Shown piece after piece: positions 21,303 to 31,402 of a DNA stretch of 64,000 nt. This DNA is from Armatimonadota bacterium. GTDB lineage: Bacteria > Sysuimicrobiota > Sysuimicrobiia > Sysuimicrobiales > Kaftiobacteriaceae. The stretch's first letter is position 1, and each line of letters begins with the position of its first letter. Made by a program: the position numbers and the translations under genes. The notes under the pieces were generated by a model. It was not told the DNA's origin, searched no databases, and was given only the letters and a program-made list of their open reading frames with translations. Where the stretch lies: contig JBBIUY010000008.1 in assembly GCA_037440005.1 (NCBI GenBank), forward strand, positions 7,806 through 71,805. Reading direction: 5' to 3'.

Positions 21303-21381
21303 GGGGGCGTGGTGTAGCCTGGTTCAACACACCTGCCTGTCACGCAGGAGATCGCGGGTTCAAATCCCGTCGCTCCCGCCA
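21303..21381 (+). tRNA. tRNA-Asp(GTC)
   Basis: Cloverleaf with GGGGGCG/CGCTCCC acceptor stem, CCTGC-CTGTCAC-GCAGG anticodon arm, TTCAAAT T-loop and encoded CCA. Confidence 0.95.
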
Positions 21382-21382
21382 T

Positions 21383-21458
21383 GCCGGGGTAGCTCAGTTG
21401 GTAGAGCGCGGGCCTGAAGAGCCCGGCGTCGGCGGTTCAAGTCCGTCCCCCGGCACCA
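21383..21458 (+). tRNA. tRNA-Phe(GAA)
   Basis: GCCGGGG/CCCCGGC acceptor stem, CGGGC-CTGAAGA-GCCCG anticodon arm, encoded CCA. Confidence 0.95.
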
Positions 21459-21600
21459 GGGCGGCCGTGACGGCGGGGTGGCGCTGACGGTCCGCCCACG
21501 GGCATCACGCGATGGAGCTCGCGTAACCGCCCGCCGCGACGGGCTGATAGCTCCTACCGGAAGTCCGGTGGGAGCTTTGCTGCTTATGGGGGAATCACCG

Positions 21601-27974: not shown

Positions 27975-28844
27975 TCAGGAGCCGGTCGCGGAGGACGCCC
28001 CCTCGTCCGCCCGGTGGGCGGGCCGGCCGGCGTACTGCTCGGCCATCTCCCGGGCGCGCTCGGCCGCCCTCCGGATGGCGTCCTGCACGGCGCGGGCGAA
28101 GCCGCGGTCTTCCAGCACCCCCAGGGCCGCCATGGTGGTGCCCCCGGGCGAGGTGACCCGGCGGCGGAGCTCGCCGGGGTCGGCCGCCGACTCGGCCAGC
28201 ATGCGGGCCGCCCCCACCAGGGTCTGCACCGCCAGCCGGCGGGCGAGCTCGCCGCTGAGCCCCAGGTCGGTGCCGGCGCGGACCATCGCCTCGATCAGGT
28301 GGTACACGTAGGCGGGGCCGCTGCCCGACAGCCCGGTCACCACGTCCAGCACGTCTTCGGAGACCACCACGGTGTCGCCCACCGCCTCGAACAGCCGCAC
28401 GGCCGTGGCCAGGTGGTCGGCGGTGGCGCGGCGTCCCGCCGCCAGCGCCGTGGCCGACGCCAGGACGGCGGCGGAGGTGTTGGGCATCGCCCGGATCACC
28501 GGCACCCCCGGCAGCGCCGCCTCCAGGGTGGCCAGGGGGATGCCGGCGATGACCGACACCACCAACTGGTCGGGCCGCACCGCGCCGGCGATCTCCGCCA
28601 GCACCTCCTGGGTGTCCCGGGGCTTGACGGCCAGGACCAGCACCGAGGCGGCCGCCAGCAGCGGGGGTTTGGTCGGCGTCACCCGCACGCCGTAGCGGGC
28701 GCCCACCGACAGCAGCCGCTCCCGGTTGGAGCGGTTGGTGACCCAGATGTCCTCCGGGGAGACCACGGCTCGGTCCAGCAGCCCCCGCAGCAGAGCGTCC
28801 GCCATGTTGCCGGCACCGATCATCCCGATGACCAGCTGCCCCAC
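27975..28844 (-). CDS. proC: Pyrroline-5-carboxylate reductase
   Basis: IGAGNMA, RAMPNT, GLSGSGPAY and VTSPGGTT motifs; GTG start with a GGAGG RBS. Confidence 0.95.
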   Translation of the reverse strand: MGQLVIGMIGAGNMADALLRGLLDRAVVSPEDIWVTNRSNRERLLSVGARYGVRVTPTKPPLLAAASVLVLAVKPRDTQEVLAEIAGAVRPDQLVVSVIAGIPLATLEAALPGVPVIRAMPNTSAAVLASATALAAGRRATADHLATAVRLFEAVGDTVVVSEDVLDVVTGLSGSGPAYVYHLIEAMVRAGTDLGLSGELARRLAVQTLVGAARMLAESAADPGELRRRVTSPGGTTMAALGVLEDRGFARAVQDAIRRAAERAREMAEQYAGRPAHRADEGASSATGS

Positions 28845-28860: not shown

Positions 28861-29050
28861 AAACACACACGCCCTCCCGCCGCAAGGGCGGAAGGGCGTT
28901 CCGCGGTACCACCTTACTTCCGGCGCGCCCGGCTGGCCGTCCGGGGGCGCCGGCACTCTGCGCCGTCTATCGGCCGGCGACCCGGCCCGCTTAGGACCCG
29001 GGTGGGTCGGTCACGGGCTGCTCCGGGGTGGGAGCCCCTTCATCGCGTGT
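28861..29050 (-). promoter_or_regulatory. T-box riboswitch (Pro specifier CCC, ultrashort Stem I) upstream of proC
   Basis: AAGG-TGGTACC-GCGG T-box at 28915-28901; antiterminator and terminator hairpins; Stem I GCGATGAAGGGG-CTCCCA-CCCCGGAGC. Confidence 0.88.
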
Positions 29051-29057
29051 AAGCGTT

Positions 29058-29086
29058 ACTGTAGCACGCCCCGGCCGCAGGCGCAA
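29058..29086 (-). promoter_or_regulatory. Sigma-A-type promoter for the T-box/proC transcript
   Basis: TTGCGC-N17-TACAGT with an extended TG. Confidence 0.65.
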
Positions 29087-29108: not shown

Positions 29109-29765
29109 CTACAGCCACCGGTCCCGCCCCCGGTAGATCTCCACCACCGGTCCGGTGGGGTGCTGCCGGCGGTACTCGCGGTACCGGCGGAGCAGGCGGC
29201 GGTACCGGCGGTCTGACGAGCGCAGGCGCCGGTGGGGGACCTGCAACAGGTACCGCTCCACCTTCCACACGTTGCGCCGGGACAGGCGCCAGTCGTACCC
29301 GCCCAGCTCCCGCAGGTCCACCAGCTGGTAGCCGGTGATGCGCCCGCTGTAGTCCACGTAGGGGTCGAAGTAACTCCACACCAGGTCCCGGAGGCTGCGG
29401 AACACCGGCCGCCGGCCGTGCAGCCCGGCGTCCCGGGACCGCCCCACGGCGCCCCACCGTCCCCGGCGGCGGAAGACGAACAGGACGTGGTCGATGCCGT
29501 CCTGGGACTCGAAGCTCAGCAGCAGGGGCGGGTAGCCGTGCTGCTCCAGGATGACGGCGGCCGCCAGGGCCGCTTCCAGGCAGTGGGCGGCGCCCCGGCG
29601 GACCACCTCCCGGAACGAGCGCAGGGTCTCTCCGCGCCGCTCCCAGTTGTACCGCAGCGACCGCAGAAACCGCTGGACCTGCTCGGGGGTGCGGTGGGCC
29701 TGGACGATCCGCCACTCCCTCCGGGTGAACGCCTCCCGCGGGGGCGGTCGGTAGCCTGCCGTCAC
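29109..29765 (-). CDS. Transglutaminase-like cysteine peptidase, vasohibin-like
   Basis: LRYN, HCLEAA, DHV and GAVGRSR...PVFRSLRDLV motifs; GTG start inferred. Confidence 0.65.
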   Translation of the reverse strand: MTAGYRPPPREAFTRREWRIVQAHRTPEQVQRFLRSLRYNWERRGETLRSFREVVRRGAAHCLEAALAAAVILEQHGYPPLLLSFESQDGIDHVLFVFRRRGRWGAVGRSRDAGLHGRRPVFRSLRDLVWSYFDPYVDYSGRITGYQLVDLRELGGYDWRLSRRNVWKVERYLLQVPHRRLRSSDRRYRRLLRRYREYRRQHPTGPVVEIYRGRDRWL

Positions 29766-29882
29766 GGGGGCAGGAATTCGCAGCCTGGCCCCGGGACGCC
29801 TGCCCGCGGCGGCGGGGCGGCCAGGGAGACGGCCTGGCTGCCGTCGAAGTGATGACACCCAGACCGGAAGGAGGTGTCCCCC

Positions 29883-30086
29883 GTGGCGGCCCGGGAGCCG
29901 GCGTTCGCTTCGGCCGACGAGGAGCGCGCGTACCTGGAGCGGGTGAAGGCGGAGCTGGACGCCTGCCGCACCAAGGAGGACGTGGTCCGGGTGTGGCGGG
30001 CCCACTACCTCCGGATCGGCCACCGCAGGCTGGGGCGGCTGCTGCTGGGCCGCAGCGTGGACGAGCTGGTGCGGGGCACGGAGTAG
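29883..30086 (+). CDS. Small helical hypothetical protein
   Basis: GGAGG RBS, typical codon usage, co-oriented with the cupin gene. Confidence 0.6.
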   Translation: MAAREPAFASADEERAYLERVKAELDACRTKEDVVRVWRAHYLRIGHRRLGRLLLGRSVDELVRGTE

Positions 30087-30089
30087 GCC

Positions 30090-30470
30090 GTGGACGTCGT
30101 CCGGCCGGACCGCGCTCAGGCCGGCCCTCCGGAGCGGCCGGAGTACGTCGCGGGGACGGTGCGCCTGCAGTACCTGCGCCGGCCCGCACCCGGGGGGATG
30201 GAGCTGATCGCCGTCTTTTTCGACCCCGGCGCCCGCACCATTCCCCACGTCCACCACGCGGAGCAGGTCCTGGTGTTCGTAGAGGGCGAGGGAGTCGTCG
30301 CCACCGAGGACGGACGGCGCGTCGTGCGCGCCGGGCAGATCGCGGTCATCCCCGCGGGCGCCTGGCACTGGCACGGCGCCACCCGCACCTCGCCCGCCTG
30401 TCACATCTCCATCAAGGCCGCCGGCCCCACCGACTGGACCGTGGAGCGCCGGGACTGGGACGACTACTGA
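30090..30470 (+). CDS. Cupin domain protein
   Basis: PHVH...EQVL and IPAGAWHWHGA cupin motifs. Confidence 0.85.
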   Translation: MDVVRPDRAQAGPPERPEYVAGTVRLQYLRRPAPGGMELIAVFFDPGARTIPHVHHAEQVLVFVEGEGVVATEDGRRVVRAGQIAVIPAGAWHWHGATRTSPACHISIKAAGPTDWTVERRDWDDY

Positions 30471-31402
30471 GGGCCCGCGGACAGCGGCGCCCAGGCGTCC
30501 GGCGGGACGTCGGCGGCGACGACGCCGGGGTGCAGCAGGGTCGCCAGGATTTCCACCCCCGTCACGATCCGGGGGCCGGGGCGGTTGAAGTACGCCGACG
30601 CGTCGGTGAGGTAGACCCGGCCGGACCGCACCGCCGGCAGGGTGTCCCACCCCGGCCGGGCGGTGAGCGGGGAGATCTCCCGCCGCGTCCGCGCCACGTC
30701 GAACCCGCACGGCATCACCACCAGGACCTCGGGCGCCGCGGCCACGACGTCCTCCCAGGGCACGACCACCGACGGCTCCCCCGCCCGGCCGAGCACGTCG
30801 CGCCCCCCGGCGATCTCCACCATCTCCGGCACCCAGTGGCCTGCGATGAAGACCGGGTCCAGCCACTCGATGCACACCACCCGGGGCCGGGGCAGCCCGG
30901 CGGTCGCCCGCCGCACGCGCTCGATCCGGGCCTGAAGGTCAGTCGTCAGTTCTTCGGCCCGGGCGCTCCGGCCGGTCAGGTCCCCCACCAGGCGGATGGT
31001 GTCCAGGATGCCCGCCCAGTCATGCGGTTCCAGCGAGACGATCTTCGGCTGCGCGTCCAGGAGACGGGCGGCCGCGGTGACCAGGGTGTAGGAGGGCGCG
31101 CACACCGCGCACAGCTCCTGGGTGAGGATCAGGTCGGGTCGCAGGGCCGCCAGCCGGGCCGCGTCCAGGTGGTAGACGCTGGTCCCCCGGTGCAGGTGGT
31201 CGCGGATGCGGGCGTCGATCGCCCCGCTGGGGAAGTCCGCGGTGACCACCGCCTGGCTCAGCACGGGCAGCCCGGCGACCTGAGGCGGGTAGTCGCAGTC
31301 GTGGGAGATGCCGACCAGCGAGTCGGCCAGCCCCAGGGCGCAGACGATCTCGGTGGCGCTGGGCAGCAGCGAGACGATCCGCACGACCTGCCCCTTTGGC
31401 AT
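30464..31402 (-). CDS. Cobalamin/iron ABC substrate-binding-like (BtuF family) protein
   Basis: RIVSLLPSATE, SHDCDYP, LCAVCA and FNRPGPR motifs; no signal peptide evident. Confidence 0.8.
   Translation of the reverse strand: MPKGQVVRIVSLLPSATEIVCALGLADSLVGISHDCDYPPQVAGLPVLSQAVVTADFPSGAIDARIRDHLHRGTSVYHLDAARLAALRPDLILTQELCAVCAPSYTLVTAAARLLDAQPKIVSLEPHDWAGILDTIRLVGDLTGRSARAEELTTDLQARIERVRRATAGLPRPRVVCIEWLDPVFIAGHWVPEMVEIAGGRDVLGRAGEPSVVVPWEDVVAAAPEVLVVMPCGFDVARTRREISPLTARPGWDTLPAVRSGRVYLTDASAYFNRPGPRIVTGVEILATLLHPGVVAADVPPDAWAPLSAGPQ

Follow-up and report, generated by a model that had tools for sequence, protein, structure and literature searches.

The stretch of DNA analysed here, called the window throughout, comprises 64,000 nucleotides of contig JBBIUY010000008.1 from an Armatimonadota bacterium of the Sysuimicrobiota (assembly GCA_037440005.1). 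The genome of this organism, referred to as G000, measures 2.44 Mb with a G+C content of 72.8%. The minus strand of the window carries proC, preceded by a leader that reads as a T-box riboswitch specific for tRNA-Pro, the Stem I of which is reduced to an ultrashort hairpin. Two relatives are used repeatedly for comparison: G001, a member of the same genus, and G020, which belongs to another genus.

The proC product matches the NCBIfam model TIGR00112 (proC) with 273 bits against a cutoff of 196.75. Its best match is the ProI model (288.8 bits, below that model's cutoff of 404), and it contains the Pfam domains P5CR_dimer and F420_oxidored. The gene is present in a single copy, as judged from the one tblastn match obtained in G000. 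On its 5' side, an open reading frame (ORF) of 588 amino acids (window 29109-30875, minus strand) shows only a weak Vasohibin-family match (E = 1.2e-5, residues 422-511). This upstream ORF evolves as coding sequence, with 187, 189 and 156 of 200 positions identical between G000 and G001 at codon positions 1, 2 and 3 respectively, and its stop (29109) is separated from the kink-turn (K-turn) of the leader by 62 nt only.

Anatomy of the leader upstream of proC

Reading of the sequence identified a complete T-box leader on the minus strand between 29046 and 28861. All T-box parts are present in the expected order, the distal part of Stem I excepted (Table 1). Stem I is made of two closing pairs (G-C and C-G), a predicted K-turn, a 4-bp GGGG/CCCC helix and a 6-nt loop; the hairpin has a computed energy of -7.0 kcal/mol, and its base follows the K-turn sequence pattern (GC, a GAU bulge, then G.A and A.G). 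This arrangement had been described by the first-pass annotation, which had also listed Stem II, Stem IIA/B, Stem III, the antiterminator and an overlapping terminator with a weak tail; all of these elements were recovered. Stem II folds alone with -21.0 kcal/mol, and its internal loop UGACC/CUAAG, which resembles the loop E motif only partially, could correspond to an S-turn.

Table 1. Coordinates of the T-box leader and of proC in the window
Feature	Position	Strand	Description
Promoter-like elements	29086-29058	minus	-35 TTGCGC 29086-29081; 17-nt spacer with TG 29066-29065; -10 TACAGT 29063-29058
Ultrashort Stem I	29046-29020	minus	GCGAUGAAGGGG-CUCCCA-CCCCGGAGC; 26-27 nt
Specifier loop CUCCCA	29034-29029	minus	specifier CCC 29032-29030, then A 29029
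Stem II	29018-28985	minus	5-bp lower helix, internal loop UGACC/CUAAG, 5-bp upper helix, loop ACCC
Stem IIA/B pseudoknot, F-box CCGAUAG	28984-28961	minus	CGG:CCG and CGCCG:CGGCG pairing
Stem III	28953-28920	minus	GAGUG before, AA after; -27.5 kcal/mol
Antiterminator	28915-28884	minus	AAGG / bulge UGGUACC 28911-28905 / GCGGA ... UCCGC / CCUU; -7.2 kcal/mol
Terminator hairpin	28899-28869	minus	13 bp, 10 G-C, loop 5; -26.8 kcal/mol; tail GUGUGUUU 28868-28861
Shine-Dalgarno sequence GGAGG	28857-28853	minus	12 nt past the terminator hairpin
proC	GTG start 28844, stop included at 27975	minus	289 amino acids

The T-box core AAGGUGGUACCGCGG occupies 28915-28901, and the segment AAGG-UGGUACC-GCGGA spans 28915-28900. 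The terminator overlaps the 3' half of the antiterminator, 16 nt being common to both, so that the two structures are mutually exclusive. The terminator hairpin was also found by a consensus terminator scan, which returned 2 terminator-like sites in 801 nt versus 0.2 in shuffled sequences. A dead sensor should be costly, since the single copy of proC lies behind this -26.8 kcal/mol hairpin.

The antiterminator bulge agrees with the cognate tRNAs of the organism. G000 encodes tRNA-Pro(GGG), (CGG) and (UGG), and all three end in ACCA, with A73 as the discriminator base, which fits UGGU as the first-pass annotation had anticipated. Two controls in the same genome follow the same pairing rule: the UGGA of the thrS box corresponds to U73 in tRNA-Thr, and UGGC boxes go with the G73 of tRNA-Trp.

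On the 5' side of the leader, the hexamers TTGCGC and TACAGT are found where the first-pass annotation had claimed a sigma-A promoter, and transcription would start near 29051. Equivalent hexamers lie 12-18 nt 5' of the K-turn in the related proC leaders, at a distance that is kept in short and long forms. The claim of a promoter as such fared less well and is weighed below.

The specifier side of Stem I, CCCACCCC (29032-29025), is complementary to GGGUGG of the T-box core (28913-28908), and the same is observed in other Pro leaders. This complementarity could be due to chance, given the Pro codon, or could reflect a fold of the off state.

Orthologous proC leaders and the distal part of Stem I

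The leader and the start of proC were submitted to BLAST against G000 and 60 relatives; the unpublished genome G033 was part of this search, and no conclusion draws on it. The 3' half of the leader and the proC start were recovered in relatives, and 30 loci with a T-box before proC were collected, G000 included. The specifier CCC is found at the homologous place in all 30 leaders, followed by A in 27 and by G in 3. Conservation of CCC in orthologous leaders had been named as a test of the Pro specificity claimed by the first-pass annotation, and its outcome clearly favours that assignment. Stem I measures 91-100 nt and carries the usual distal motifs in 27 of the 30 leaders. It is restricted to 26-27 nt in three, namely those of G000 (GGGG-CUCCCA-CCCC), G001 (GGGG-CCUCCCA-CCCC) and G020 (GGGG-AAACCCA-CCCC). 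In an alignment of 29 of the 30 leaders (A1), from which G006 with its long insertion in the Stem III region was omitted, the rows differ on a large scale at one place only, the distal Stem I, where a gap extends over about 75 columns. Hence, the short proC leader is clearly orthologous to the full-length ones.

In order to place the short forms, a tree of ProC was examined (29 of the 30 rows, one short match having been dropped). G000 and G001 form a clade (98/99) beside full-length genera, and G020 falls inside a clade (100/99) of which the 4 other members are full length. These positions indicate that the short form is derived and that at least two independent losses occurred for proC; relative to its full-length ancestor, the leader of the window has lost about 70 nt. 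As G000 and G001 share the short form, the loss was present in their common ancestor. No proC orthologue was found in G003, G004 and G005, which gave paralogues only (37-42% identity, without T-box), nor in G014, G017, G019 and G021 at E <= 1e-20; these genomes are incomplete.

Full-length proC leaders of genera g7 and g4 (L022, L024, L026, L030 and L033) have a plain Stem II hairpin of 5-6 bp with a purine-rich loop. In the ultrashort G020 leader (L025), from the same genus, a Stem II with its internal loop is kept. Within one genus, therefore, either the distal Stem I or the internal loop of Stem II is reduced, and for proC not both.

We then compared the leaders of G000 and G001 with their flanking sequences. 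Identity reaches 24/26 in Stem I, 31/35 in Stem II, 28/29 in Stem IIA/B and 50/51 in the antiterminator and terminator. It amounts to 18/32 in Stem III, a stem that is usually variable, and to 32/52, with 13 gaps in addition, in the spacer between the upstream stop and the K-turn. Third codon positions are identical at 204 of 286 sites in proC and at the 156 of 200 already given for the upstream gene. Taken without Stem III, the leader is conserved at 133/141 positions (94%), as compared to 360/486 (74%) for the third codon positions of both genes (Fisher p = 2e-8); with Stem III included, the figure is 151/173 (p = 3e-4). Moreover, the third pair of the K-turn is altered on both sides between the two genomes (A.G to C.U). 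A case of true decay offers a contrast: in G009 (L233; C125:15198-19013), the orthologous proC is interrupted by two stops in frame (TAG and TAA), and nearly the whole T-box has been lost from the leader, a TACAGT box and a terminator-like hairpin being left. Together, these comparisons suggest that the short forms are kept under selection.

Ultrashort T-box leaders across the phylum

A covariance model, R1, was built from three ultrashort proS leaders of other genomes. MAFFT had set the Stem II and IIB helices of proS and proC rows one column out of register, and R1 was built from proS leaders alone because of this fault. RNAalifold on the MAFFT alignment (A2) returned a long-range fold of CCCACCCC with GGGUGG, which was rejected as spurious. 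R1 matches the window at 29045-28883 with 35.6 bits (E = 2.8e-6 in 218 kb). The model also matches full-length T-boxes, all matches being aligned over positions 1-119; since it cannot separate short from long forms, every leader was classed by reading.

R1 was run over 94 genomes, which make up the order and also the sample of the whole phylum, and the best 50 matches were read, in a ranking biased towards proS-like leaders. In total, 31 ultrashort leaders were read in 27 of the 94 genomes, upstream of proS (23, or 22 without the unpublished genome G080), proC (3), alaS (3), glyQ (1) and serS (1). The best 30 R1 loci comprise 23 ultrashort proS leaders (15 in family f5 and 8 in f1), one ultrashort serS leader and six full-length ones. 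Among the 20 further matches, three are ultrashort (alaS in G010 and G014, glyQ in G010) and 17 have a long Stem I. The third ultrashort alaS leader, that of G020, came from a separate pattern search and lies outside the R1 reading. A pattern scan of all species genomes gave at least 4 T-box leaders with an ultrashort hairpin among the matches listed, all from this lineage; one of these is the G001 leader sequence and three precede proS.

The serS leader (L204, G074) reads GGAG-CCUCCA-CUCC and has a UGGC bulge. The alaS leaders present the loop CUCGCCA in G010 (L213) and G014 (L216) and UUCGCCA in G020 (L176), while the glyQ leader of G010 (L214) has the loop AGGGCA and a UGGA bulge. The G010 alaS leader is devoid of Stem II, only 5 nt separating Stem I from the pseudoknot. 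With a length of about 117 nt, this leader would be smaller than any other T-box known to us. An S-turn in Stem II that would always compensate for the lost arm was considered and ruled out, the Stem II of ultrashort proS leaders being a 6-bp hairpin and that of G010 alaS being absent.

The specifiers seen in ultrashort leaders are G/C-rich ones only (CCC, GCC, GGC and UCC). In four related genomes with listed T-boxes, six of the nine leaders with an all-G/C specifier are ultrashort as compared to none of the 19 others, in a count where three of the lists hold UGGU-type boxes only and where a leader truncated at a contig end and a core without recognisable leader were left out. Close relatives may differ in the form, long or short, that one and the same gene carries: the proS leader is long in G000, G005 and G021, G051 has a long proC and a short proS leader, and both are short in G020.

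Covariation was evaluated on 27 ultrashort leaders from two families, aligned to R1 with G080 omitted. In this set 98.4% of the cells pair, versus 46-55% with slid partners, and 14 of 26 pairs change on both sides, a number reached by 0 of 500 shuffles; the alignment was fitted to the model structure and the sequences are related, so these values have to be read with that reserve. Both-side changes affect 2 of the 4 pairs of the Stem I helix (G-C to A-U; 99.1% paired), 5 of 6 in the Stem II helix and 3 of 4 in the IIB helix, and both antiterminator helices covary as well. Most of the 27 leaders have the K-turn strands CGAUGA ... GAGC, and none lacks the closing C-G pair. Loop bases 5' of the specifier vary freely, and CCC followed by a purine is fixed in the Pro leaders. 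A hairpin with a U-rich tail behind it was found in 27 of 27. The Shine-Dalgarno sequence and start codon lie 5-34 nt past the hairpin in the 20 leaders placed by script; the tails of the other 7 were read by eye. Such an architecture is that of intrinsic terminators rather than of Shine-Dalgarno sequestrators, the tails of the proC leaders of G000 and G001 ranking among the weakest.

On sequence grounds, the proC leader is one member of a wider class in the phylum, located mostly upstream of proS. A broader proposal is that ultrashort T-boxes of Sysuimicrobiota form a recurrent, selected class of transcription attenuators that would have arisen repeatedly by loss of the distal Stem I; we hold its chances of being right and wrong to be about equal.

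In G000 itself, a motif scan followed by reading gave 12 T-box leaders with terminators, 11 with a long Stem I and only that of proC with a short one. The Rfam T-box model RF00230 gave 14 partial matches over the whole genome, none of which reaches the cutoff of 93 bits and none of which lies at the proC leader. Its gathering score is attained by none of the 12 leaders, and five of them yield a match to the antiterminator only or no match. It follows from this result, obtained in a genome of high G+C content, that standard annotation would miss most T-boxes of the phylum.

Another T-box leader of G000, upstream of an ilvE-like gene (C10:65836-66133, minus strand; L004, L010), holds a complete tRNA-Ala(GGC) gene including CCA. 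This gene (C10 65883-65957 by aragorn) stands in the usual place of Stem III; a 7-bp helix (GACAGCG/CGCUGUC) surrounds it, and its end lies 17 nt 5' of the T-box core. It is the only tRNA-Ala(GGC) that aragorn detects in G000. The same arrangement is present in two genomes of another family (L175 in G061 and L177 in G062). Elsewhere in the window, at 21303-21563 on the plus strand, aragorn detected tRNA-Asp GUC and tRNA-Phe GAA, with a fluoride riboswitch (RF01734; 44 bits versus a gathering score of 34) 44 nt further on.

Proposed mode of action and comparison with known T-boxes

We regard it as likely that the leader functions as a T-box riboswitch for tRNA-Pro and governs the sole proC, most probably by transcription attenuation. 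Attenuation is favoured over sequestration of the Shine-Dalgarno sequence because a U-rich tail comes after the terminator and the Shine-Dalgarno sequence lies 12 nt beyond the hairpin. The transcript would start a few bases 5' of the K-turn, and the 4-bp helix would offer CCC followed by A, in its 6-nt terminal loop, to the anticodon of tRNA-Pro(GGG). As the distal Stem I is absent, the tRNA elbow would stay undocked, and Stem II together with the IIA/B pseudoknot would probably buttress the three G-C pairs between codon and anticodon. When the tRNA is uncharged, its ACCA end would pair with UGGU of the antiterminator bulge. Through this pairing the antiterminator, weak in itself (-7 kcal/mol), would be stabilised in its competition with the strong terminator (-27 kcal/mol), which would allow readthrough into proC; with the tRNA charged or absent, the terminator would form.

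Several observations weigh against this interpretation and have to be set beside those that carry it. The canonical scan proposed by the first-pass annotation was negative at the proC leader: RF00230 gave nothing at the gathering score and nothing at E <= 10 in 601 nt. The promoter scan found no sigma-70-type site above thresholds at the leader, and the -35 hexamer matches at 3 of 6 positions; this point, like a whole-leader fold that is no more stable than shuffled sequences (z = -1.65), can also be taken as neutral. The internal loop of Stem II is not a canonical S-turn. The U tail GUGUGUUU is poor in G000 and poorer still in G001, so that termination may be inefficient. Among proC leaders, the ultrashort form is known from only 3 genomes, two of them from one genus, and the alignment behind the covariation values was, as said, a fitted one. 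Furthermore, excerpts of PMC7583486 (section 6.2) state that the elbow-docking motif is essential in transcriptional T-boxes since the tRNA must bind before the polymerase reaches the terminator, a rule that raises the prior against co-transcriptional function of the proC leader.

The weak tail also bears on the nature of the output. A sensor for tRNA-Pro could work while its output is not, or not only, termination, and acts instead on translation start, on pausing or on messenger stability, as in the translational ultrashort ileS elements. Besides the tails of G000 and G001, which are weak, the fact that the known ultrashort class is translational speaks for such an output, and pairing of the 5' terminator strand, CCUUCCGCC, with the Shine-Dalgarno region GGCGGAGG is conceivable in principle. 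However, the Shine-Dalgarno sequence stands outside the hairpin, 12 nt after it, and that 5' strand has a nearer 3' partner with which it makes 13 pairs around a 5-nt loop. Other ultrashort leaders display good U runs right after the hairpin, such as UUGUUUUUC and UUUUGUUUU. We therefore hold this alternative to be rather unlikely. A relic that can no longer capture tRNA after losing its distal Stem I, and that survives as a leaky, constitutive and decaying attenuator, seems slightly more doubtful again. According to excerpts of PMC7583486, mutations of the elbow-docking motif compromise transcriptional T-boxes; the poor tail could represent a relaxation that lets proC be expressed without antitermination, and the small number of genomes with the proC form would suit decay. 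Nevertheless, the functional parts are 94% identical between G000 and G001 as compared to 74% at third codon positions, and none of the three genomes shows damage to the specifier, the UGGU bulge or the antiterminator. The design is also kept with covariation in the 27 aligned leaders of two families, and the true decay case of G009 looks quite different.

Two further readings concern the decoding end, and both are far less probable. The loop could present CUC (Leu) or UCC (Ser), so that another tRNA would be sensed: CUCCCA does contain both triplets, and tRNA-Leu genes also have A73. This is very improbable, as the G020 loop AAACCCA holds neither triplet, only CCC followed by a purine is common to all 30 proC leaders, and the regulated gene is proC. 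In addition, the sole Ser-specific ultrashort box found, that of serS in G074, has a UGGC bulge rather than UGGU, and the corresponding tRNA-Ser presumably carries G73. Finally, the start near 29051 was placed from the sequence, and the promoter scan gave no site, which would leave room for a start further upstream that supplies a normal long Stem I. The evidence makes this scarcely credible: both K-turn strands directly flank the 14-nt hairpin, the short stretch after the stop at 29109 follows an ORF that evolves as coding, and the promoter-like hexamers are conserved at the same distance from the K-turn in both forms. A tRNA-Pro-dependent attenuator upstream of proC thus stands as the preferred explanation.

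Ultrashort Stem I ileS T-boxes of Actinobacteria are said to have been described by Sherwood, Grundy and Henkin in 2015. The proC leader shares with this class the short Stem I helix, a specifier followed by a purine in the terminal loop, the absence of the elbow-docking double T-loop, the K-turn, Stem II, the IIA/B pseudoknot, Stem III and a UGGN bulge that reads the 3' end of the tRNA. It differs from it by its CCC specifier and tRNA-Pro instead of tRNA-Ile, by the biosynthetic gene proC and by its occurrence in a candidate phylum rather than in Actinobacteria. Moreover, ileS leaders have a Shine-Dalgarno sequestrator, whereas that of proC has an intrinsic terminator with a U-rich tail and a Shine-Dalgarno sequence downstream. 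Stem II is reported to be essential in the ileS elements, while some members in the phylum have a plain Stem II hairpin (proS) or none (G010 alaS). In the longest-loop ultrashort members, the numbering coincides with that given for ileS in excerpts of PMC7583486 (codon 16-18, A19).

The same excerpts place ultrashort Stem I elements among translational T-boxes, mostly of Actinobacteria, in agreement with the first-pass annotation, which had called the class mainly translational, ileS-linked and actinobacterial, and they state that transcriptional T-boxes "generally require" a long Stem I. A 2023 preprint (10.1101/2023.02.28.530422, in part) has all ultrashort T-boxes regulating ileS, and parts of PMC12990946 and PMC11297988 agree in substance. 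As described in part of PMC7778990, the class II model of the T-box database TBDB was run only on Actinobacteria and on class I matches with truncated Stem I. The literature consulted yielded no account of ultrashort T-boxes that serve other amino acids or are combined with terminators, and entries of TBDB with truncated Stem I could already list similar elements. No report of a T-box riboswitch in Armatimonadetes was found either, and the Sysuimicrobiota paper makes no mention of riboswitch, T-box or proline.

With canonical RF00230 T-boxes, represented by the 27 full-length proC leaders and by the proS leader of G000, the short leader has in common the specifier, the K-turn, Stem IIA/B with its F-box, the core, the switch between antiterminator and terminator and the gene itself. 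Unlike these, it is short of about 70 nt at the distal end of Stem I, where the AG bulge and the GGUGNRA-bearing distal loop would be, and RF00230 is silent on it. The proBA and proI genes of Bacillus subtilis reportedly have Pro-specific T-boxes with a full-length Stem I (Brill and co-workers, 2011), and the attenuation proposed here, in which anabolic proline genes respond to tRNA-Pro, would resemble theirs. A biosynthetic proline target alone is thus not new, given these Bacillus examples. The first-pass annotation had seen an extension of the ultrashort class to Pro and to a biosynthetic gene: CCC and proC bear this out for the class, and the combination of a Pro T-box with proline biosynthesis was, by these accounts, already known. 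Another natural minimal form with a G/C-rich specifier is glyQS (excerpts of PMC7583486 and PMC7913692), where G/C-rich codons are said to make Stem II, and the lateral support that it gives, dispensable (PMC7913692, in part). In glyQS, Stem II is dropped and a long, docking Stem I is kept; the proC leader is the reverse. By every sequence feature except the distal Stem I, the leader is a T-box, and it would work like the ultrashort ileS class at its decoding end and like a canonical T-box at its output end.

The main interest of the proC leader is that it represents one case of a conserved class that contradicts a rule stated in the field, its short forms carrying ordinary intrinsic terminators. 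Because this class escapes the Rfam model, its frequency in uncultivated phyla is underestimated by T-box censuses. With lengths of about 115-160 nt, such leaders would offer compact building blocks for engineered tRNA sensors. Natural pairs of long and short leaders, sometimes within one genus (proC in G012 versus G020, proS in G021 versus G019), ask what share elbow docking has in co-transcriptional sensing and whether a codon-anticodon helix of three G-C pairs can take its place. If the proposal of a recurrent attenuating class is true, members without Stem II, such as that of alaS, would be the smallest natural T-boxes, and elbow docking would be dispensable for co-transcriptional tRNA sensing when the codon-anticodon helix is strong.

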